From a virus (Duplodnaviria; Caudoviricetes), in IMG/VR virus record IMGVR_UViG_3300020599_000169, positions 1 to 31,520 of that record: a stretch of DNA of 31,520 nt. One strand, written 5' to 3'. Below the pieces are notes generated by a model. The model was not told the DNA's origin, made no database searches, and was given only the letters and a program-made list of their open reading frames with translations. A program made the translations under genes and the position numbers. Positions 9,839 through 31,520 of this stretch are shown in pieces. Every line of letters begins with the position of its first letter. Within the stretch, counting starts at the first letter, position 1.

Positions 9839-10027
9839 ATGAGGGTAGCGGAGCATTTAAATAAAACTCAAATAAATAAACTTGATAAGTTAAAGAAATG
9901 TAATCCATCCAAGAAGAAACAATCACCTAAGAGGAAACAGGAAGAACGTGTTGATTGGATAGACATCATGGGTACGAATAGACAAACTCTCAAACGTGGT
10001 AAAGGTGGAGCAATGAGAAGAAATTGA
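9839..10027 (+). CDS. Small basic phage protein
   Basis: Lys/Arg-rich, ...DIMGTNRQTLKRGKGGAMRRN; GGGGTG RBS. Confidence 0.7.
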   Translation: MRVAEHLNKTQINKLDKLKKCNPSKKKQSPKRKQEERVDWIDIMGTNRQTLKRGKGGAMRRN

Positions 10028-18308: not shown

Positions 18309-19379
18309 ATGAAGTTCATACTTTGTCAGCCGGCAATCAAACGTTTTGAATGGGAACTAGAAGTTTGTTTAACTCGTTTGAAAAAACTTGGTATTCAAGA
18401 TATTGTCCTACTGTTTGCTCAGTGGGACAATTCTGTTCCTAAGTATTTACAAGAAAAATATAATGTTGAAGTTCATGTGTATGATGATACTCATAGGAAT
18501 AAAAGTTATATACCTTCTGTAAAACCATATTTGTGGATGCAGTACTTATCAGAAGATCGATCTAGAGAAAAGGAATCTTATTTTTATTTAGATAGTGATG
18601 TCTTGATAAGGGAAGTCCCTGAAGTACTGCCTACTGAAAATATATGGTTTGCTTCTGATTGCAAAAGCTACATCGGTATTGATTACATCGATAGCAAAGG
18701 TTCAGATCTATTAGAGCGTATGTGCGATGTTATAAATATTGATGCTTCAATGATAAGAAAATATAATCCTACTGGTGGAGCCCAATGGGTAATAAAAAAT
18801 CCAACATTTGAATATTGGAAAAAGGTTTATGAAGATTCTGTGAAGCTCTTTAAGTTTCTTTCATCAGTTGAAAATGAATATGTACGTAAGAATGGTTCGG
18901 ATTATACACCAATTCAAAAGTGGACTGCAGAAATGTGGGCTCAATTATGGAATGTTTATCATATTGGTAGGACTGTTCAAGTTGAAAATGAGCTTGATTT
19001 TTGTTGGCCTACAGATGATGTAGAAAAATATTATTCCACAAAGATTTATCATAACGCTGGAGTATTAGACGATAATCAGAAATTATTTTTTAAAGGTAAA
19101 TATACAAATAGTACACCATTCAATGATGATTTAAGTGGAATAGATCAAAGCAAAGCATCCATTGAATATGTTAAAGCGATTTATGATGTAAAAGAGGTGA
19201 AAACAATGAGATATGAAGTTATTCATCCCTTCCACGATTTACAGGATAAAAATAAAGTATATGGAATAGGTGACACTTTCCCTAAGCCAGCAAGTAAAAG
19301 AGTTTCAAAAAAACGCATAGAAGAATTATTATCAAGCGATAACAAGCTTGGAAAACCAGTGATAAAAGAAATTGAGTAG
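18309..19379 (+). CDS. GT-A glycosyltransferase (putative protein Ser/Thr O-glycosyltransferase) fused to a small phage domain
   Basis: YFYLDSDV DxD motif; YIPSVKPY, GGAQW, KWTAEMWA, IYHNAG; the last 57 aa resemble a stand-alone phage morphogenesis-region protein. Confidence 0.8.
   Translation: MKFILCQPAIKRFEWELEVCLTRLKKLGIQDIVLLFAQWDNSVPKYLQEKYNVEVHVYDDTHRNKSYIPSVKPYLWMQYLSEDRSREKESYFYLDSDVLIREVPEVLPTENIWFASDCKSYIGIDYIDSKGSDLLERMCDVINIDASMIRKYNPTGGAQWVIKNPTFEYWKKVYEDSVKLFKFLSSVENEYVRKNGSDYTPIQKWTAEMWAQLWNVYHIGRTVQVENELDFCWPTDDVEKYYSTKIYHNAGVLDDNQKLFFKGKYTNSTPFNDDLSGIDQSKASIEYVKAIYDVKEVKTMRYEVIHPFHDLQDKNKVYGIGDTFPKPASKRVSKKRIEELLSSDNKLGKPVIKEIE
19206..19379 (+). CDS. Nested in-frame 57-aa phage protein (C-terminal domain of the GT)
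   Basis: AAAGAGGTGA at 19191-19200, then in-frame ATG 19206: MRYEVIHPFHDLQDKNKVYGIGDTFP...RIEELLSSDNKLGKPVIKEIE. Confidence 0.6.
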   Translation: MRYEVIHPFHDLQDKNKVYGIGDTFPKPASKRVSKKRIEELLSSDNKLGKPVIKEIE

Positions 19380-22900: not shown

Positions 22901-23796
22901 TTGATTTATTTCTTAAAGGGTCTAGTTCTGTTTGGGACATGGTCAAAGGAAAATTTAATCTCTCTGATAGTGTGATTCCATCATGGTTAAACAATCATAC
23001 AGGTAGTCCATTAACGTATATAAAGGATATGGCAACATCATGGATAAAAGGATTATGGGATAATTGGTTCGGTGATATGGGTAATGTGACAGGTGGTTCT
23101 GGTGTCCAAAGATGGTCTGGAATCGCCACTCGCGCTCTTATGATGACAGGGCAATTTACCAAGGCTAACTTAGACAGATTATTATATCAAATGCAAACTG
23201 AGTCTGGTGGGAATCCTCGAGCTATAAACCTGTGGGATATTAACGCTAAACGAGGAATCCCATCAAAAGGATTAATGCAAGTAATAGATCCAACATTCAG
23301 GGCATATGCGCACCCAGGATTTAATAATAACATCTATGATCCATTATCAAATATTTTAGCTTCTATTCGATATGCAGTATCTCGTTACGGTAGCCTTGCA
23401 AGAGCGTATAGAGGTGTTGGTTATAAGTCAGGCGGATTAATTAATAATCAAGGTTTGTATGAACTTGCAGAAGGTGGATGGCCAGAATGGGTTATTCCTA
23501 CAGATCCAAGTCGTAGAACGGATGCTATGAAGCTTTTAGCTCTAGCTGGTAAGGAGATACAAGGTAATAAGCGTCCACATCAATTACCTAACATCAGTGG
23601 TAATTCAACTAGTGATGACAGCCTTTTACAAGCAGTGTTAGAGCAAAACAGAATACTTATGGCTTTATTACAAAGCAGTAAAAATATCGAGAAAAAACCA
23701 ATAATATCTCAATATGATATTGGCAGAGCAGCAGAAAAATATGATTCTCAGCAATCTATAAATCATGCAATATTCACAGGGAGGGCTGCATTATAA
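19993..23796 (+). CDS. Tape measure protein with a C-terminal lytic transglycosylase domain
   Basis: 1267 aa, helical; TMP core (DTVNEYS...DKVGDAVKEF); QTESGGNPRAINLWD...SKGLMQ SLT motif. Confidence 0.95.
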   Translation: MADRIEGLSIGLDLDALALDRGLTGLKDRLKTVNSEMKANLSAFDRADKSVEKYETRLNGLNRKLEVQKRVVVAAASEYEKMVAEYGKGSKEAEKANRELNNQVSSLNNLQRNIERTTDDLKELKKSQQQASSGWAKFNDAAKKTESTLTNIGEVGKNVGQTLTASLTVPLTGFALMAGKSALEFEAAQGKIQAQLGLTAKEAENLSEVAQDVWENGFGESIDEVSNALAKAEQNMGAFGWASKQELQEIGESALMLSKTFEADVNDTTKTANQLITQFGLSSKEAFDMLTWGFQNGLNYSDDFLDTVNEYSVQFATMGMSAEEMFSIFEQGAISGAFNMDKVGDAVKEFNIRIKDGSKTTSDAMGELSKGTQQVWKDFERGEKTGKEVMQAIIKELSSMDDQVKANQIAVGVFGTQWEDLESDAVYAMGNVSNELSGVEGATKKAGDALNDNLGVRAQKLWRNFLTDMQPVGEVLVDLAEDILPEVAKTIGYVTDAFTSLSPEGQKTTLLIGGLVTAVGPLVTILGFATTGVGSFMGVLGLLTGPVGITVGILAALGAGFVALDKAMDKPVIKSDIFAGEISEATQAAVGAYMDLDSDATAELNNLSITSQTITDKMADYMISKYAEMGDTILQNMKENHTKQLEEQRLLFEQSAVLTEEEEAKRLAKLKADQLAEEEAHNANQARIKEIWTIAAEEKRGITDAEAKEIAQIQNNMRLKAVEELSASKQEQETILRNLKQNKSIIEAETAANTVRKSAETRDKVIKEANQQYSQTVSSAESARDELGIISTAEAAKIIKEAERKKNESVANAQDTHSLVVTEAQKQAQDHVDEVNWETGGVLSGWDSMYNGVLDAVNWVRGLFGKEPLAKRGSVKENGRQRLKRQNAKFSAYADGTPSSGHPGGPAIVGEEGIELAHIPGQGVTILGTKGPEFLSNLPRGSSVLPNKQTERLLKSYGFPGYAEGIGDYFDLFLKGSSSVWDMVKGKFNLSDSVIPSWLNNHTGSPLTYIKDMATSWIKGLWDNWFGDMGNVTGGSGVQRWSGIATRALMMTGQFTKANLDRLLYQMQTESGGNPRAINLWDINAKRGIPSKGLMQVIDPTFRAYAHPGFNNNIYDPLSNILASIRYAVSRYGSLARAYRGVGYKSGGLINNQGLYELAEGGWPEWVIPTDPSRRTDAMKLLALAGKEIQGNKRPHQLPNISGNSTSDDSLLQAVLEQNRILMALLQSSKNIEKKPIISQYDIGRAAEKYDSQQSINHAIFTGRAAL

Positions 23797-24674
23797 TGTT
23801 TAATATCTATGATGAACAATTCAATCCTATCGCCCTTCCTGTTGACGATTTAGGATATGGATTAACAGACCTAGATTTACAGATTTCGTCCACAACCCAA
23901 GAAGTAACGGAGCACTCTATACCAGGTTTACCAGGTAACATCATTACTGGTTTTCGGGATAGCGATAGAGATATGAATATTCATGTAATGTTAAAAGCAA
24001 AAGACGCAATAGACTTTCGATTAAAAAGGGATCGAGTCTTTGCGTTTTTTAAACGTTTAGGGACATTTTTTATTACGGAAAAACAACAAGGAAACAAGTT
24101 GATGAAGGTAAGAGTTGTAGAATCGTATAGGTTTGATCGTCCAGAGAACAACCGAACATTCTCAACTGTGGACATACCTCTTAAGATCGTTGGACAACCT
24201 TATTGGATTAGTCGTTATAAAAGTATGGACTTGCATAATAGTGGTGGAGTTCCATTTAATGGCCATTGGTCCTTTGGAATGGGATTAGATGTTGATCCTT
24301 CAAAGTTATTATATAAATTTACTAATCAATCGTCTTTTAATGTATTTAACGCTGGTACGGTCCCAATTAAAACAATTCAAGAAGTTGAAAACTGTGTGAT
24401 TACCATTGAGATCAATCAATCTGTTACGAGTTTTAGATTATATGATGAGACCGGCCGTTATTTTGAATATAACCCAACAAAAGAACCTAGTTGGGCTTTA
24501 GTAAGCGGAAATAAGATCGTATTAAACGGTCAATATATGAAGATGAATGAAACACCTATTTTAGGTAGAACAAATCGTTATTACTTATGTTTATTGCCAG
24601 GGGAAAACAGGCTTACGATGGACGGATTATCAAACTACACCATAAGCTTTGATTTTCGCTTTAAGTACGATTAA
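23796..24674 (+). CDS. Distal tail protein (Dit)
   Basis: Follows TMP by TAATG; ...VFNAGTVPI...LLPGENRL...FDFRFKY. Confidence 0.85.
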   Translation: MFNIYDEQFNPIALPVDDLGYGLTDLDLQISSTTQEVTEHSIPGLPGNIITGFRDSDRDMNIHVMLKAKDAIDFRLKRDRVFAFFKRLGTFFITEKQQGNKLMKVRVVESYRFDRPENNRTFSTVDIPLKIVGQPYWISRYKSMDLHNSGGVPFNGHWSFGMGLDVDPSKLLYKFTNQSSFNVFNAGTVPIKTIQEVENCVITIEINQSVTSFRLYDETGRYFEYNPTKEPSWALVSGNKIVLNGQYMKMNETPILGRTNRYYLCLLPGENRLTMDGLSNYTISFDFRFKYD

Positions 24675-24688
24675 GAGAGGTGAGAACA

Positions 24689-26623
24689 TTGACAATTTAT
24701 TCTATTGATAATCCATTGAGTGATGATGGAAGAAATAAAATAAATAAAAACTTTGAGAATACAGATAAAAAAATTAACGATCAAAAAACACGTGTAGACG
24801 ATCTAATAAAGAATACACCACAACCATCAGAAGTTGTAGATGCTCGTGGAGGAGCTCCAGTTTTACGTGATCGATTGGATAAAGTTGATGCGGAATTGGC
24901 ACAAAATGCGAATCAAATAACATCTATTTCAGCGGATGTTGATGATTACAAAGTTTTGAGAAGAAAAAACAATATTATTCCGAGGCATGTTAAAACATAC
25001 AGTATGCTTAGACAAAATGTCCCATTAAGTGCTTTTATAGCAGGAGATAGTATTGCACAAGGTTCAGGAGCAACTAGCGGTAATTCATGGAGTGCGAAAT
25101 TGGGCGCATCACTAAAAAATGCATTAGGTTTATCTAGCGATTGGACTGTAAAAAATGTGGCGGTTGGTGGAAGAACCATAACGAATGTTGTAAATCAAAT
25201 ATCATTTGATTTAGAGAAAAATGATCGTGCTTATGTTACTAAAAAGTCTTACCCATATAACTATCCAATTTGGATTATCATGACAGGTAGAAATGATTTT
25301 GCAGTACTATCAAAAAAAGACTTTGAATATTACTACCGTTTAGTAATTAGAATGGCTAAATCCTACGGAATAGACGTAGTTTTATGTTCAGAACCAGCAA
25401 GGGTTAACACTTCAACAGGTGACATAGTAGATGGTGTTGGAGGGAATAACTATCCAGAATATGTAGAAATTATTAAGTATTTAGCTGAATCTGAGGGTTG
25501 TTCCTTTTTAGATATATATCAGGAATGGGTTGATATGAAGAATTCGGATGGTGTGGACTTGACAACACTTACTAGTGATGGTGTACACCCTAACGATTCT
25601 GGACACAGTATTATTTGCGATATGATGACAGAATTAATAACTTCAATACCGAAAGAACTTTCAAATGTAAAGCCTAATATTCAATACCCTTACAATCTTG
25701 TGCCACAAATATTAATTGATGGTGCAACAACAGGGACTTATACGCAAGAATCTATAGTAACGCAAGCAGAAACTTCCTATAAATCAAGAACAGGTAATAA
25801 TTACGCTTATAAGGTACTAGCTGGTAACGACATATATTTTCCTATTCACCAAATAAAGGCAGATTATATATTCGTTAACGTTATTATTACTGCAACGACA
25901 GGTAAAATAACCGTTCAATGTCCGACTGGTTATACTTTAACTGAAATTAATCCAGAAACAGGATTAACAGTAGAAAAAACATATATATTAAAAACGAATG
26001 ACGTTACAATTGGTAAAGGCGGCATTTACCTATATGTAAGTGGGGGAGATGCTTATATTACAGGTGTTGGTGTTATACAACCTACATGTAACGTTTGGCA
26101 CAACGGAATCAACGGAACAAAAACAGGTACATGGTCTCCGGTTACTTATGAAAGTACAAGAGACTTTTTCATCGAAAGTAATACTGCCGGCAACACTATA
26201 GAAATAGAATGGTACGGTGTGGAATTACTAATTAATTATGCTAGAAGTAATTCCTTTGGTAAATTCTCTATTTCTACAGACGGAGGAGGAGCTGCAATTG
26301 TCGATTGCTATCAGAATTTAACCTATGTTTTCGGAGGAGTTTATGTATCTACAGGTAGATTTAATTTTGGCAAACATAAAACCGTAATTACGGTGTTGAA
26401 TGAAAAAAACACCTCTTCTTCAGGGTATAAAGTAGGGATTGGAAGAGGGTACATTTTTGATGTAATGCATAATGATGGGAAAATCATAGCTAATGTTGGT
26501 GACAAGATTAAAGTAAATATAAATAATAATGCCAATTATATCAGGGCAACAGCTCCTTACACTTTAACTAATGGAGTATTAGAAAGTACTGTAACAGGTA
26601 TGATTGAAACAGATGTAATTTAG
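24689..26623 (+). CDS. Tail-associated protein: phage anchor domain, SGNH/GDSL hydrolase and beta-rich C-terminal domains
   Basis: N-terminal QPSEVVDARGG...LRDRLD; SGNH blocks GDSIAQG, NVAVGG, GRND, DGVHPN; TTG start behind GAGAGGTGA. Confidence 0.82.
   Translation: MTIYSIDNPLSDDGRNKINKNFENTDKKINDQKTRVDDLIKNTPQPSEVVDARGGAPVLRDRLDKVDAELAQNANQITSISADVDDYKVLRRKNNIIPRHVKTYSMLRQNVPLSAFIAGDSIAQGSGATSGNSWSAKLGASLKNALGLSSDWTVKNVAVGGRTITNVVNQISFDLEKNDRAYVTKKSYPYNYPIWIIMTGRNDFAVLSKKDFEYYYRLVIRMAKSYGIDVVLCSEPARVNTSTGDIVDGVGGNNYPEYVEIIKYLAESEGCSFLDIYQEWVDMKNSDGVDLTTLTSDGVHPNDSGHSIICDMMTELITSIPKELSNVKPNIQYPYNLVPQILIDGATTGTYTQESIVTQAETSYKSRTGNNYAYKVLAGNDIYFPIHQIKADYIFVNVIITATTGKITVQCPTGYTLTEINPETGLTVEKTYILKTNDVTIGKGGIYLYVSGGDAYITGVGVIQPTCNVWHNGINGTKTGTWSPVTYESTRDFFIESNTAGNTIEIEWYGVELLINYARSNSFGKFSISTDGGGAAIVDCYQNLTYVFGGVYVSTGRFNFGKHKTVITVLNEKNTSSSGYKVGIGRGYIFDVMHNDGKIIANVGDKIKVNINNNANYIRATAPYTLTNGVLESTVTGMIETDVI
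24896..24913 (+). repeat. Putative recombination site 1 (TTGG-N7-TGCG), in frame within the SGNH gene
   Basis: TTGGCACAAAATGCGAAT; aligns with sites 2 and 3; lies at the anchor/payload junction. Confidence 0.4.
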
Positions 26624-26710
26624 TGGGTAAATTTCAGAGAAAATAATTTATTTCCACATTATTACATGGTAATATAATACACAAGAATATTATCTGGTAG
26701 GTGTGTTATA

Positions 26711-26881
26711 TTGGCGATAATAACCAAATTGAAGCATATATTCAAATCTAAACGTAAAAAAAAAGTAACTATCTGTCCTAATTGTAACGGTGCAGCAGTT
26801 GAAGAATTATTTGATCATTGTTATTACTGTGAAGGATCAGCTGTTGTCACTGAGACTAAAGCTAAGAAATATACAGGATAG
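26711..26881 (+). CDS. 56-aa protein with a CxxCxG...CxxCxG zinc finger (not in ORF track)
   Basis: MAIITKLKHIFKSKRKKKVTICPNCNGAAVEELFDHCYYCEGSAVV...; GGTAGGTG RBS; TATAAT at 26673. Confidence 0.7.
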   Translation: MAIITKLKHIFKSKRKKKVTICPNCNGAAVEELFDHCYYCEGSAVVTETKAKKYTG

Positions 26882-26938
26882 TTTCAAAATAAAGTCTCAT
26901 CGAGTCTTTTTATTTATGGAAGCATATTTGATAATGAA

Positions 26939-26960
26939 CTTTTGGATAAAATTCCGACAC
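26939..26960 (+). repeat. Putative recombination site 2
   Basis: CTTTTGGA-TAAAAT-TCCGACAC, intergenic, after an imperfect terminator hairpin. Confidence 0.45.
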
Positions 26961-27044
26961 ACTTATAAGTATTAATAAGTACAAATGTGTATTGATATTT
27001 ACTTGTAGATGTCAGACAATTATTACCAAGTGAGGTGATGTTGT

Positions 27045-27218
27045 TTGGCAACTAAAAGAGTGAACATCACGGTCGATCCAGTAATGCTCGATGAGTTTTA
27101 CAGACTGGCAGCTAAGAAAGGAATTAAATTTTCTACTTGGGTACAAGTCAAAATGGAAGAATTCATTGAGGAAGAGAAAATGATTGAAGAATATCGAAGG
27201 AAGAAGTACTCTGAATAG
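27045..27218 (+). CDS. Ribbon-helix-helix (CopG/Arc-like) DNA-binding protein (not in ORF track)
   Basis: MATKRVNITVDPVMLDEFYRLAAKKGIKFSTWVQVKMEEFI; GAGGTGA RBS; hairpin terminator 27204-27229. Confidence 0.8.
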   Translation: MATKRVNITVDPVMLDEFYRLAAKKGIKFSTWVQVKMEEFIEEEKMIEEYRRKKYSE

Positions 27219-27248
27219 GGTGCTTTTTTCTATGGGAGGAATATAAAA

Positions 27249-27398
27249 ATGACTCATGAACAAATTGAAAATGCAATCGTTGAAGCTAGACGAGAAGATG
27301 GAACATTTGATTATGAATTTGTAAAACAGATGAATGAGAAAGGTATTTGGTTTTCTTTTTTAGATTCAGGTGTTAGATGGAGTTATACTCCTTTTTAA
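27249..27398 (+). CDS. 49-aa hypothetical protein (not in ORF track)
   Basis: MTHEQIENAIVEARREDGTFDYEFVKQMNEKGIWFSFLDSGVRWSYTPF; GGGAGGA RBS. Confidence 0.7.
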   Translation: MTHEQIENAIVEARREDGTFDYEFVKQMNEKGIWFSFLDSGVRWSYTPF

Positions 27399-27432
27399 TT
27401 AATAAAGACTCACAAAAGTGAGCCTTGCGAAA

Positions 27433-27648
27433 TTAAGTATCTGTTCCACGAAATCCTCCTTCATCGGAACGAACACGCATGTTTTCCTTATTACAACCAG
27501 TCATTGTACGGCACTTAGGACATTGAACTGTATTACCAATCAATGTTGAAGTGTCAAAGGAATTCATGTCTCCGAAGAATATAGGAGAAGGAAACCAAGT
27601 GTTACAATTTTTATTAGTACATTTGATTTCAACACTTTTAGTTGACAT
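27433..27648 (-). CDS. Small zinc-ribbon protein
   Basis: CTNKNC...CPKC; AAAGGTGGTG RBS; convergent hairpin at 27404-27426. Confidence 0.75.
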   Translation of the reverse strand: MSTKSVEIKCTNKNCNTWFPSPIFFGDMNSFDTSTLIGNTVQCPKCRTMTGCNKENMRVRSDEGGFRGTDT

Positions 27649-27695
27649 ACTTACACCACCTTTACAAATATTAGGAACTATTCCCTTTTAGGACT

Positions 27696-27719
27696 TTCGA
27701 CATAACATGATTAATTCCT
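27696..27719 (-). promoter_or_regulatory. SigH-like promoter with TGTCGAA box
   Basis: Minus strand AGGAATTAATCATGTTATGTCGAA upstream of the 27648 gene. Confidence 0.55.
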
Positions 27720-27802
27720 TTATTTTTATGTCGCAATTGTAAGTATTAATGTTTAAAAGTGTTTATAAATGCTGATATACCAGTATTTGTGTCAATGCAA
27801 AG

Positions 27803-27824
27803 ACTGTGGAGAAAATTCCGCAGT
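27803..27824 (+). repeat. Putative recombination site 3 (imperfect palindrome)
   Basis: ACTGTGGA-GAAAAT-TCCGCAGT: 8-bp arms with one mismatch and an asymmetric 6-bp spacer. Confidence 0.5.
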
Positions 27825-27836
27825 AAATAAATTTAA

Positions 27837-27861
27837 AGGATATCACCTTAAGTATGTCGAA
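27837..27861 (+). promoter_or_regulatory. SigH-like promoter with TGTCGAA box
   Basis: AGGATATCACCTTAAGTATGTCGAA(T) upstream of the 27889 gene. Confidence 0.55.
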
Positions 27862-27888
27862 TAATGGATAATATTGGAGGTGATATTT

Positions 27889-28089
27889 TTGGTTATTGTA
27901 CATGGAACTATTCAAAATCGACCAAATCGCAATTCACTCGATTTTGAAATCGAGTTAAATGTAGAAAGTATTTCTGAAAAGGATATGCCTATACCGGAAT
28001 CAACAAAATTAATTGTAGATGCAATTAATAAAAAATATAAGGTTAATTATCCTTATTCAAGTTTTATCAACCCATTATTAATTAAATAA
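27889..28089 (+). CDS. Hypothetical protein
   Basis: TTG start behind GGAGGTGA; 66 aa. Confidence 0.7.
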   Translation: MVIVHGTIQNRPNRNSLDFEIELNVESISEKDMPIPESTKLIVDAINKKYKVNYPYSSFINPLLIK

Positions 28090-28094
28090 AACGT

Positions 28095-28133
28095 AAAAAA
28101 AGAGCATTCAGAATTAATCTGTTTGCTCTTTTT
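28095..28133. terminator. Bidirectional terminator
   Basis: AAAAGAGCA..CAGA-ATTAA-TCTG..TGCTCTTTT between convergent genes. Confidence 0.65.
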
Positions 28134-28332
28134 CTATTACAAGAAGATCTCCCGGGGTTACATTAAGGTATGTACAAAGTTTATTTAATAACTCTCTAGG
28201 GAATGTCTTACTTTCATCATTATAAAGTTGTCTAACTGACTCATATCTATAACCAATATCCTTCGAAACCTTTAATACAGATAATTCCCTTTCATCAAGG
28301 ATATTTTGAAGATTGGATTTAATCTTAACCAT
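28114..28332 (-). CDS. Cro/C1-type HTH regulator (YozG-like)
   Basis: MVKIKSNLQNILDERELSVLKVSKDIG...LNKLCTYLNVTPGDLL; ATG at 28332 behind AGGAGG. Confidence 0.88.
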   Translation of the reverse strand: MVKIKSNLQNILDERELSVLKVSKDIGYRYESVRQLYNDESKTFPRELLNKLCTYLNVTPGDLLVIEKEQTD

Positions 28333-28353
28333 ATCATCCCTCCTGATAAGATT

Positions 28354-28433
28354 ATACACGAAATTAGTGTAATTAGTCCTATTTACTCGAAAAAAGTGTA
28401 ATGATAACATAAAATTACACGAATTGCGAGTAA
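28354..28433. promoter_or_regulatory. Three 19-bp operators TTACAC-N7-GTGTAA and the recombinase promoter
   Basis: ATACACGAAATTAGTGTAA 28354, TTACTCGAAAAAAGTGTAA 28383, TTACACGAATTGCGAGTAA 28415; TTTACT, 17 bp, TAACAT with TG extension (28382-28410). Confidence 0.75.
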
Positions 28434-28447
28434 TCAAGGAGGGTAAT

Positions 28448-29440
28448 ATGATAAACGATACTGCTAGATTTATGAACGATTTAGAAGTTGTTGTTAGTAC
28501 ACTTGCCCCGGAGACAGAACAGGACAAGCTCTCTATACGATTAGAAGAGGTGTTGAGTAATTATGACATCCACAGAAAAACATTAAAAGATATTGAACTT
28601 GATCTCCAAGATAAAATTGAATTATTTCTATCTTCTAGAAAAATTGAGGGATTAACTCAAAAAACACTAGATGGATATAAGATTGAACTAGACCTTTTTG
28701 CAAAATTTGTTCAAAAACCTGTTGTACAAATAAATACATCTGATATCAGGAAGTACCTTGGCCATAACAATAAATTAATGATAAGTACAATAGATCGTAA
28801 GTTATCTGTTATAAAAACCTTCTTTGGATGGTTGGTGAGAGAGGAATTGTTATTACGGGATCCCTCCTTAAAGATTAAGGCTCCTAAAAAGCCTAAACGT
28901 TTACCAAAGAGCTTATCAATTGAAGAATTAGAGATTGTGAGAGAATCATGTATCACATTAAGAGAAAGAGCATTAATGGAGGTGATGTACTCCACTGGAT
29001 GCAGACTTTCTGAAATTCAAAATATGAAGATATCTGACATTAATACTCAAGAATTGAATCTTCATGTAATAGGTAAGGGAGACAAGGAAAGAGTTGTTTA
29101 TTTATCGATTAAAGCTCTACATCATTTAAGAAAATACTTGAATAGTAGAAATGATGATTGCGAGTATCTCTTTGTAACAGAGCGAAGGCCATTTAGAAAA
29201 ATGTCTAGTCGAAATATTGAGCGCATAATCGATATGATTGAGGAAAGAGCCAAGATATCAAAGAAACTAACTCCTCACACATTCAGACATACATTTGCAA
29301 CACTTGCAATGGAAAATGGTGCAGATCTAGCAGACGTTCAGCAATTATTAGGACACGAGGATCCAGCTACAACACTAGTTTATTCTCATGTATCAGAAGA
29401 GAGAAAGAAACAAGCACATAAAAAGTATCACGTACTTTAA
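28448..29440 (+). CDS. Tyrosine recombinase (XerD-like, with core-binding domain)
   Basis: YSTGCRLSE, VIGKGDKER, TPHTFRHTFAT, LLGHEDPATTLVY give the full R-K-H-R-H-Y set; AAGGAGG RBS. Confidence 0.95.
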   Translation: MINDTARFMNDLEVVVSTLAPETEQDKLSIRLEEVLSNYDIHRKTLKDIELDLQDKIELFLSSRKIEGLTQKTLDGYKIELDLFAKFVQKPVVQINTSDIRKYLGHNNKLMISTIDRKLSVIKTFFGWLVREELLLRDPSLKIKAPKKPKRLPKSLSIEELEIVRESCITLRERALMEVMYSTGCRLSEIQNMKISDINTQELNLHVIGKGDKERVVYLSIKALHHLRKYLNSRNDDCEYLFVTERRPFRKMSSRNIERIIDMIEERAKISKKLTPHTFRHTFATLAMENGADLADVQQLLGHEDPATTLVYSHVSEERKKQAHKKYHVL

Positions 29441-29483: not shown

Positions 29484-31520
29484 ATGACTTTAAAATATAA
29501 CGAAGGTCAGACAGCAGTTTTTCTAAGAGATTTAACAGGTCAAGAATATCCTGCAATAGCAGTATTGAACAGAAAAAGAAGAGTAAACGGACAACGGGAA
29601 ATAACGTTGTCTTTTTTATATACAGATATAAATAAAGATTTTATGGACAAACTCGAATTTGGCTGGAAAGTATTATTCAAAAATGAAGAATACACCATCA
29701 CTAATCCTGGCATTAAAACAGATGGAGATTATTTTAGTGTTGGTGTAACAGCCATATTAAGTTTCTTTGTGGATTTAAACGGATATTATTTGCAAGATAA
29801 GGCAGAAGATAAATCCACGATAGCAACTGAGTTTTTTCATCAGATATTTGATGGAACTCCATTTTCATTTGTGCTAGTTGATAATTTCGCAGCAACTACA
29901 TTGACATACCAGGATAACCAAAGTCGAACAGAAAGGTTCTTGTATGGTATTGATCGTTATAATTGCGAATACAAAGTCCAAGGAAAAAATGTCTATCTAT
30001 ACAGTTTAGTAGGTTATGACAAAGATGTTATTTTACATGAAGATTTAAACATTAATGAAGTTAGTATTGAGATAGATGCAAGTGGATTCCATACCTGGGC
30101 AAAAGGGTTTGGTGATTTACCAGACGATGATACAAATGGGAACTATCAAATAGAAGTTGAATATCGTTCTCCTCTCATTGAAAAATATGGAGCAATTGAA
30201 GGTCCAGCTATTAAGGATGGTAACTATAAGGTAGCTGCAAATTTAACTAACGCAGTCAAAGAGCAAGTAGAAAATAGTTACAAGATGTCAACCACAATCA
30301 ATGCTGTGGACTTAACAAACAACGGCTATCCAGAAATGGTTTTAGAAGAAGGAGACCGTATATGGTTGTATGTCGATCGTCTTAATTTGAATCAACAAGT
30401 AAGAGTAATGGATATTGATGAGACCTTTGATTGGGAAGGGAATATCATCGATACCAATTATACTATTGGAAATGAGGGTATCGCTACTCGTTATAAAACC
30501 CAACAATATAATACATTAAAGGATTTCCAAGACATCTTATCCGGACGTAAACCAATTGCTTATAATTGGCTACCTCAAGAAGTAAAACGAGCATCGGATA
30601 TTATTAATGGTAATCAAGATAGCCTATTTAAGTATCTACCTGGTGAAATCATTGGTATTAATCAGAGTAATCCAAATGGATACATGAGATTCAATACAGA
30701 TGGATTGGGATTTAGTCGTGATGGAGGTAAAACATATCAAACAGCTATGACCTACGAAGGTATTGTAGCAGATGCAATTTTTACCGGTACTTTAAATGCT
30801 GCGCTTGTTCGAATATTAACTGGATTAACAAATGCTCGTATTGAAATGGACGGAGATGGATTCAGACAATATGATGTAAATGGGCGAGAGGTTATTAATT
30901 TTGATCCTGCATCTGAGTTTCCTACTTTCTTCGGTACTTTAGTTAAGGTGATTGCTGATAATGCTCTAGATTTAAATGGTATACAAATAGAAAACCCTTT
31001 TATCGGTGTAGACAGTCGTTTCGTTGCCCGTACTGATCCTGTTTTGGGTGAAGTTTCACAGATTGAAAGCTTCCAAAATGGCGTATACACTAATCCAATG
31101 CCAATTCATTTTAGAGCAAATTACATCGATATGTTCACGAGCGTTATAGCTGAAGTGAATATGAGAAGATTGTTTATCAAGGGCGGTTCCGATGCCTTAA
31201 CTATTGAAGCTAATAACGGTAATGGTTATATTGCCTTCCACAATGGGACCAATCGAACAGGCGAGATCGGTAATAAAGATACTACTACAAATGATATTTT
31301 AGTAGCTGCTATTACAACAGGAGCAAAGTTAGTGTTATTTGCTCAAGGTGGAATTATAGCCTTTACTGAAAGTGGCACCAATGGTCAACACATCAACACT
31401 GTGGATGACAATGCAAGGTGGAAGCAGTCAGTTAATAATCACATTACACAATTTACGAGTGGAAATGTTGAAATCTTTAAAAATGGTTTAATGCTCTTTA
31501 GGTTTAATTCCACAACTGAT
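29484..31520 (+). CDS. Tal / tail spike (prophage tail endopeptidase-like), truncated by the window end (not in ORF track)
   Basis: GGAGGTGA RBS; MTLKYNEG...RRVNGQREITLSF...TWAKGFG...EYRSPLIEKYG...GLGFSRDGGKTYQTAMTYEGIVAD; same frame at both ends, no stop noticed (not every codon checked). Confidence 0.85.
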   Translation, partial: MTLKYNEGQTAVFLRDLTGQEYPAIAVLNRKRRVNGQREITLSFLYTDINKDFMDKLEFGWKVLFKNEEYTITNPGIKTDGDYFSVGVTAILSFFVDLNGYYLQDKAEDKSTIATEFFHQIFDGTPFSFVLVDNFAATTLTYQDNQSRTERFLYGIDRYNCEYKVQGKNVYLYSLVGYDKDVILHEDLNINEVSIEIDASGFHTWAKGFGDLPDDDTNGNYQIEVEYRSPLIEKYGAIEGPAIKDGNYKVAANLTNAVKEQVENSYKMSTTINAVDLTNNGYPEMVLEEGDRIWLYVDRLNLNQQVRVMDIDETFDWEGNIIDTNYTIGNEGIATRYKTQQYNTLKDFQDILSGRKPIAYNWLPQEVKRASDIINGNQDSLFKYLPGEIIGINQSNPNGYMRFNTDGLGFSRDGGKTYQTAMTYEGIVADAIFTGTLNAALVRILTGLTNARIEMDGDGFRQYDVNGREVINFDPASEFPTFFGTLVKVIADNALDLNGIQIENPFIGVDSRFVARTDPVLGEVSQIESFQNGVYTNPMPIHFRANYIDMFTSVIAEVNMRRLFIKGGSDALTIEANNGNGYIAFHNGTNRTGEIGNKDTTTNDILVAAITTGAKLVLFAQGGIIAFTESGTNGQHINTVDDNARWKQSVNNHITQFTSGNVEIFKNGLMLFRFNSTTD

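Follow-up and report, generated by a model that had tools for sequence, protein, structure and literature searches.

The window analyzed here is a 31,520-nucleotide stretch of viral DNA (IMG/VR record IMGVR_UViG_3300020599_000169, positions 1 to 31,520) that, judged by Pfam matches and gene content, represents most of the genome of a siphophage or prophage. It contains what, on comparative sequence evidence, is a real and conserved cassette system in which short sites bracket a domain of a tail protein. A repressor and an antirepressor are encoded at the left end, followed by replication, packaging, head and tail genes. The interval separating Dit (23796-24674) from Tal (starting at 29484) contains a 644-amino-acid (aa) tail gene, four small open reading frames (ORFs), one further ORF, a divergent helix-turn-helix (HTH) gene and a gene for a Xer-like tyrosine recombinase. 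An initial annotation had reported three related sequences upstream of this recombinase, at 24896, 26942 and 27806; all three are present exactly as written, and we refer to them as sites 1, 2 and 3. The window is contained in four soil-metagenome runs (X1-X4) from two samples, which were used as contigs only. Because the closest named relatives of the recombinase are from Metabacillus (93%), we infer that the host is a member of the Bacillaceae.

The tail gene following Dit consists of a constant N-terminal anchor and a variable payload. The anchor (24689..24897, + strand; ~70 aa, with the sequence QPSEVVDARGG) was delimited from 30 proteins that share it. Similarity among these proteins ends right after L-A-[QED], and the payloads that follow contain SGNH, pectate-lyase, beta-helix or deacetylase domains. 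The initial annotation had suggested looking for one anchor with different payloads behind this motif, which is what we found, and it had correctly placed site 1 in frame at L-A-Q-N-A, where anchor and payload meet. In the window the payload (24898..26623, + strand) comprises an SGNH/GDSL esterase domain, with Pfam PF13472 at residues 122-310, PHROG tail-fiber matches and a match to PDB 7ddy, and a C-terminal half without a family, for which all matches in an atlas search scored <0.9 and CE2_N (0.86) is a mere lead. The payload is predicted to be a host-surface enzyme or receptor-binding part, its virion location and host binding being suggested by gene position, PHROG matches and domain content. 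A blastn search of the tail gene against phage records returned no match.

Across loci, the conserved unit at the sites has a 10+6+10 geometry: a left arm (-8..+1), a 6-bp spacer starting with GG, and a right arm, with conservation restricted to ~26-28 bp. Site 1 (24888..24913, + strand) lies in frame within the tail gene and belongs to class A, with the left arm ATGCGGAATT, the spacer GGCACA and the right arm AAATGCGAAT. Site 2 (26934..26959, + strand), an intergenic site of class B, has the left arm ATGAACTTTT, the spacer GGATAA and the right arm AATTCCGACA. Site 3 (27798..27823, + strand) is the terminal class B site, with a degenerate left arm CAAAGACTGT, the spacer GGAGAA and the right arm AATTCCGCAG, whose reverse complement matches the left arm of site 1 at 9 of 10 positions. 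The 8+6+8 palindrome that had been drawn at site 3 was 3 bp off, as cross-locus conservation centers 3 bp further left. A profile scan of 24896-29440 found no site on the - strand besides the mirror of site 1.

We scored the window with a profile trained on 15 in-gene junctions, all from other loci. On the + strand, 24896 ranked first (27.7 bits) and 26942 second (11.5 bits). With class-specific profiles from which the window sites had been excluded, site 1 scored 29.0 (A profile), site 2 scored 18.8 (B profile), and the right half of site 3 scored 18.4, the best right-half score in the window. In 100 Markov-simulated sequences of 31.5 kb, such scores recurred ~0, 0.01 and 0.01 times per sequence, respectively; because they are near-absent from the simulations, sites 1 and 2 and the right half of site 3 exceed chance. 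Owing to the degenerate left arm, site 3 taken in full scores only 8.0 bits (rank 7), a weak match of which ~3 would be expected by chance. The caution in the initial annotation that the motifs might be chance matches thus does not apply to sites 1 and 2 and does apply to site 3 taken whole, for which support comes from the right half together with the comparative breakpoints described below.

The sites recur in relatives. In 15 other loci taken as junctions, L-A-[QEDH] was encoded TTG-GCN, and other L-[AS]-[QEDH] motifs mostly used other leucine codons. Because the loci of a 23-locus pattern scan had been selected on TTG, they were excluded from codon statistics. Among loci found through the anchor, collected without reference to site or recombinase, 3 of 24 failed the search expression; the LA[QED] junction was present in 10 of the remaining 21 and used TTG in all 10, compared with 107 of 658 other leucine codons. 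An in-gene site was present in all six loci found through Dit, also collected without reference to the sites. Matches of at least 10 bits numbered 58 on the + strand in 298 kb of upstream sequence, 12 on the - strand, and 20 in 317 kb downstream. When the frozen profile was applied to 19 new genome loci, there were 17 upstream + strand matches (13 outside training) and one on the - strand; nine of the 12 tail loci in this set had at least one site and six had both classes. Class B sites are found where the payload stops or where the cargo genes following it end, usually 100-400 bp before the recombinase. Tandem downstream sites are found in the window, L008 and L237, and L018 has two A-B units. 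Other routes to loci were less productive: a single-protein genome scan gave five loci only, an anchor search of viral contigs one weak locus, and an anchor search of seven genomes none. Duplicates were dropped before counting (L004, L007, L167 and L168, as well as L021 and L026); L236 is a copy of L235.

Homology between phages begins or ends at the sites. The window and L008 are 87% identical over 306 bp beginning at the TT that forms position 0 of site 2, so that the breakpoint check proposed in the initial annotation came out in its favor. L176 and L182 have different anchors and the same payload start, with 93% identity from position -7, and homology between L002 and L170 starts at -1. 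In other pairs that share an anchor, similarity stops at +5 to +20. In a phage contig of run X3, from the same sample as the window, a match to the anchor end and a match to 27807-27830 are separated by 1,933 other letters. L234, a complete 61-kb genome without a match to the window recombinase, reads identically at both junctions; counted from 27807, it agrees with 18 of 19 bases of site 3, its downstream spacer is identical, and its in-gene spacer is one base from that of site 1. Two further contigs of X4 are weak hints that we did not count: one ends at 26949, the last spacer base of site 2, and one of 208 bp (depth 2.7) joins another anchor end to 24886-24916. Separately, breaks immediately upstream of the terminal site were observed in two assemblies, at L262 (G001:C4 end) and L002 (G001:C41 start) and at L212 (G444:C10 start); the G001 break separates an in-gene site from a terminal one, and the outer arms of the two match at 9/10.

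The arms of paired sites are related within a genome. We compared 31 in-gene/terminal pairs and 11 held-out pairs, 42 in all; the loci share kinship, and the pairs are therefore only partly independent. Within a genome, the in-gene left arm and the terminal right arm were complementary at 5.36 of 8 positions, compared with 4.09 after permutation (0 of 20,000 permutations), and the 11 held-out pairs alone gave p=0.0017. The remaining three pairings, including the two arms of one site and the payload-side arms, had permuted values. This long-range complementarity indicates that a phage retains its outer arms when the intervening DNA is exchanged. Spacers behave differently: those of a genome's own in-gene and downstream sites were identical in 0 of 42 pairs, matching at 2-5 of 6 positions (mode 3), and in-gene spacers are mostly GGC and downstream spacers GGA or GAC.

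The recombinase gene (28448..29440, + strand, ATG at 28448) encodes 330 aa and was classified from NCBIfam scores, an AlphaFold model and its residues. The catalytic set is complete (R186, K213, H277-x-x-R280, H303 and Y312), and the gene occupies the Dit-Tal interval, a long way from the repressor region at the left end, in agreement with the earlier description of an intact tyrosine recombinase in the tail module, distant from the lysogeny module. NF040815 (XerA-type) was the only NCBIfam cut-off passed (228 bits versus 220); the protein scored under the XerC, XerD and integron-integrase cut-offs. In the AlphaFold model the top fold match is archaeal XerA (5hxy), and the N-terminus is predicted to be extended by two helices of ~50 aa. 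Its family comprises 3,648 proteins at E<=0.001; at E<=1e-80 it occurs in 16 of the 401 genomes sampled from the order. In phage loci the recombinase usually comes after a fiber or spike gene, often with a divergent HTH or ribbon-helix-helix (RHH) gene, and it adjoins a tail or fiber gene wherever that gene is placed, whether in the Dit-Tal interval, before the holin or in convergent orientation. The isolated phages phiCp-D and TPELB_ph1 have the same gene order, and TPELB_ph1 has a second annotated integrase elsewhere in its genome. We ruled out that the window recombinase is the lysogeny integrase on account of the Dit-Tal position, the two-helix N-terminus and the separate integrase of TPELB_ph1.

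We regard it as probable, with modest confidence, that the adjacent Xer-like recombinase swaps the tail-enzyme unit between two co-resident phage genomes through two like-with-like crossovers. Site 1 would recombine with the in-gene site of another phage to give a cointegrate, which would then resolve at the pair of downstream sites, or the downstream crossover would come first. The phage would keep its anchor, along with the left arm of site 1 and the terminal right arm, and would change its payload and cargo. Deletion between in-gene and downstream sites would be disfavored, as their spacers differ; most tyrosine recombinases need identical spacers, some transposon integrases being exceptions. 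If the cointegrate resolved instead at a degenerate look-alike located further downstream, extra cargo would be brought in; this could explain the unit between sites 2 and 3, which may be a stretch of donor backbone captured up to such a look-alike. Phages that lack a recombinase gene would depend on the enzyme supplied by a co-resident phage. Either such action in trans or loss of the gene must be assumed because most site-bearing phages have no recombinase nearby: one was found in only two of 23 pattern-found, one of 24 anchor-found and none of five Dit-found viral loci, and ten site-bearing records searched whole contained only distant tyrosine recombinases or none. The initial annotation had pictured a system acting in cis; this picture leaves out the many site-bearing phages that lack the recombinase. 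The sites, their geometry, the breakpoints and the inheritance of arms are observations; that the recombinase acts on the sites, that it does so by this route and in trans, and that the payload serves in host recognition are inferences.

The scarcity of recombinases in cis is itself a point against like-with-like exchange by the adjacent enzyme, and several others should be counted with it. The uniform GGC of class A arises partly by construction, since GGC served as the original definition of the class; GGA or GAA spacers occur at some in-gene sites (L222, L261 and L068); and in-gene spacers vary at positions 4-5 between phages, so that partners often mismatch at one or two bases. Similarity of arms is only weakly related to similarity of recombinases (Mantel r 0.12-0.17 for three arms and -0.04 for the fourth; 28 loci), a result confounded by linkage. 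Three of the 12 tail-module loci in the new set had no site at 14 bits. No recombination event was seen in the contigs of the four runs, and no near-identical pair of phages differing only between the sites was found. Finally, inheritance of the outer arms is predicted equally well by excision.

Integron-like excision and integration, as proposed in the initial annotation, would have site 1 recombine with site 2 or 3 despite the spacer mismatch, yielding a start-less payload circle, an empty anchor and tandem integration. Several features fit: every site is directly oriented, a single near-palindrome would result from joining the left arm of the in-gene site to the right arm of the terminal one, and in 36 of 42 pairs the downstream site supplies an in-frame stop, at its codon 0 or 6, so that an empty anchor would end cleanly. 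The tandem downstream sites and the two A-B units of L018 would be expected from repeated integration, some in-gene sites carry B-like spacers, and in chromosomal relatives (L228) genes are separated by several direct sites. We nevertheless consider excision unlikely. The two spacers of a genome differ at about half of their positions, and the cassette-side arms, at a complementarity of 3.07 compared with 2.99 after permutation, do not resemble a proper circle site. An empty-site scan gave ten matches, three of them ordinary filled loci of this system and seven unrelated, which is a weak test since it used one strict pattern; no empty anchor was seen among the other loci mapped either. The contigs of the four runs held no joint from deletion between site 1 and site 2 or 3, and contigs show presence, not absence. 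In PMC11705084, Acinetobacter xrs cassettes, even those in direct repeat, were not excised. We favor the like-with-like exchange because own spacers differ, because neither an empty anchor nor a deletion joint was seen, and because of this xrs precedent. What stands of the integron-like idea is that the sites are real and conserved and mark points of exchange; excision and re-integration are the less favored part of it.

Quite improbably, the sites could be used by another enzyme, such as the host XerC/XerD homologues or a lysogeny integrase, with the neighboring recombinase a passenger or active elsewhere. The dif-like geometry of the sites would suit such an enzyme, as would the weak covariation of arms with the recombinase and the absence of a recombinase in cis from most site-bearing phages, including the complete L234 genome. 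Against it, the recombinase usually begins 100-400 bp past the terminal site and tracks the fiber gene across genomic positions, and the downstream spacer covaries with the recombinase (r 0.41). The window arms match those of B. subtilis dif at only 2-3 of 11 positions by eye, the dif sequence, taken from PMC3025954, being that of B. subtilis and not of the true host. Very improbable, and already largely refuted, is the absence of any site-specific system, with ordinary homologous or illegitimate exchange at a conserved linker and motifs due to protein constraint or chance: modular exchange behind a conserved N-terminus is common in tail genes (for example PMC10674732), the motifs are short and site 3 taken whole is within chance, but this reading is contradicted by the TTG codon fixed at the junction, the non-coding downstream sites at payload stop or cargo end, the 17-to-1 strand bias in new loci, the long-range arm complementarity, and breakpoints at position 0 or -1 of intergenic sites.

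The locus resembles several known systems in part. Like the Rin shufflon of Bifidobacterium prophages, as described in PMC6109161, it has an arm-less tyrosine recombinase beside a receptor-binding gene, one site in the gene and a second direct site right past its 3' end, and a constant N-terminus with a variable C-terminus. Rin itself, in the same account, has two or three inverted sites, several silent Rv ends in the locus, and inversion at an asymmetric 11-bp repeat. The window, unlike Rin, has direct sites only, dyad-shaped and with differing spacers, and its cargo genes ride along. It holds no silent payload store, with only small ORFs between sites 2 and 3, and therefore new ends must come from other genomes. 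An invertible shufflon was ruled out by the one minus-strand match against 17 plus-strand matches in the new loci and by the absence of silent C-termini from the locus; no strand-change joint indicative of inversion variants was found in the contigs of the four runs.

As in the Acinetobacter xrs (pdif) modules described in PMC11705084, gene units in the window have Xer-type sites on either side whose central regions diverge; here, too, two arms surround a 6-bp central region that diverges between flanking sites. That source reports plasmid cointegrates at xrs sites with closely related central regions, a one-base mismatch included. Intermolecular recombination at compatible sites, through cointegrates proposed there to exchange genes, is also the route proposed here. 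The xrs sites described in it are used by host XerC and XerD, lie on plasmids and flank whole genes; the window, unlike these, has a single phage-encoded XerA-like candidate enzyme and one site in frame in a virion gene, which would produce domain fusions.

Integrons are defined by IntI, attI and a long, imperfectly palindromic attC that folds as a single strand. As in an integron, a tyrosine recombinase lies beside direct sites that bound gene units, and small cargo genes accumulate. The sites are ~26-bp dyads rather than long attC hairpins, the phage loci have no long array, and a site for in-frame fusion has no integron counterpart. An integron integrase was ruled out by the scores of 117 bits against a cut-off of 265 (TIGR02249) and 74 against 435 (NF011946). 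The recombinase is closest to archaeal XerA (NF040815; PDB 5hxy and 4a8e), with which it shares the best family score above cut-off, the best fold matches and the combination of a single enzyme with a symmetric site. It differs in being only ~31% identical, in its extra two-helix N-terminus, and in a phage tail context instead of chromosome dimer resolution. The window locus is thus Rin-like in anatomy and xrs-like in its proposed route, and lacks defining properties of Rin (an inverted store), of integrons (enzyme and site type) and of xrs (host XerCD). A literature search, which did not extend to subscription papers and supplements, found no description of such a system.

The other genes of the interval are small. 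The unit between sites 1 and 2 contains a 56-aa ORF with two CxxC motifs (26711..26881, + strand), for which PHROG matches are weak. Between sites 2 and 3 lie a 57-aa ORF in the module common to the window and L008 (27045..27218, + strand), which has no Pfam match and by eye may have an RHH-like fold, a 49-aa ORF (27249..27398, + strand), and a 71-aa ORF with two cysteine pairs (27433..27648, - strand), the latter two without a family in Pfam or PHROG. A further 71-aa ORF (27874..28089, + strand), between site 3 and the regulator, is not found in close relatives; homology of L006 to the window picks up again 290 bp past site 3. Elsewhere, cargo between sites, judged by eye, often consists of a long membrane protein or of an enzyme for sugar modification, resembling acetyltransferases, deacetylases or nucleotide-sugar dehydrogenases (L173, L191, L259, L260, L208, L010, L011 and L014), which suggests that receptor modification may travel together with the payload.

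The initial annotation listed the recombinase and overlooked the gene divergent from it (28114..28332, - strand), which encodes a Cro/C1-type HTH regulator (PF13443, E 2.7e-15). An HTH or RHH gene occupies this position in many relatives. Recombinases without such a gene have a conserved, apparently structured upstream leader of ~110 nt (L003, about 9880-10009; L008, L009, L088, L090 and L035). At the Rfam gathering score there was no match in the window or in four loci, and the conserved leader gave chance matches only. The recombinase is convergent with the tail module in L018, L020, L025 and L074, and in L018 there are two tail genes, each with its own unit of in-gene and downstream sites. 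A subgroup of the family lies in chromosomes outside tail modules (L228, at G123:C30; L227, L229, L230 and L232), in one case after groEL. L228 has eight direct B-like sites of at least 10 bits between genes, some pairs 62 bp apart, and may be an array-building island.

Two other features of the window were noted. A 356-aa moron (18309-19379; phrog_4417 with an Arc-like repressor end) is encoded between the genes for tail tube and chaperone and contains a weak B-like site match at 18423 (13.9 bits). From 26950-28500 onward, depth changes in all four runs from 16-38 in long left-hand contigs to ~6 in right-hand contigs, at differing places among the runs, possibly owing to prophage replication in place.

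Known host-range switches, such as inversion by Gin, Cin, Min and Rin or diversity-generating retroelements, act on sequence already present in one genome, by reshuffling or mutating it. The anatomy described here points to a dedicated enzyme and fixed in-frame sites that would import whole receptor-binding enzyme domains from other phages. We put forward, tentatively and as the less probable side of the question, that this is a programmed, community-wide trade in host-recognition domains among phages of Bacillota. Compatible sites would be kept by siphophages and myophages that are unrelated and differ in their anchors, the minority that carries the recombinase would serve the rest in trans, and payloads would travel with surface-modifying cargo; chromosomal islands such as L228 would form a second, array-building branch that could capture genes. 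Import of domains by a dedicated enzyme at fixed sites, with or without such a community-wide system, would make the long-noted mosaicism of Gram-positive phage tail proteins a defined, testable reaction and not the assumed product of random recombination. The many tail modules with a second annotated 'integrase' would also be explained, and a new heterospecific site pair would become available for cassette exchange.

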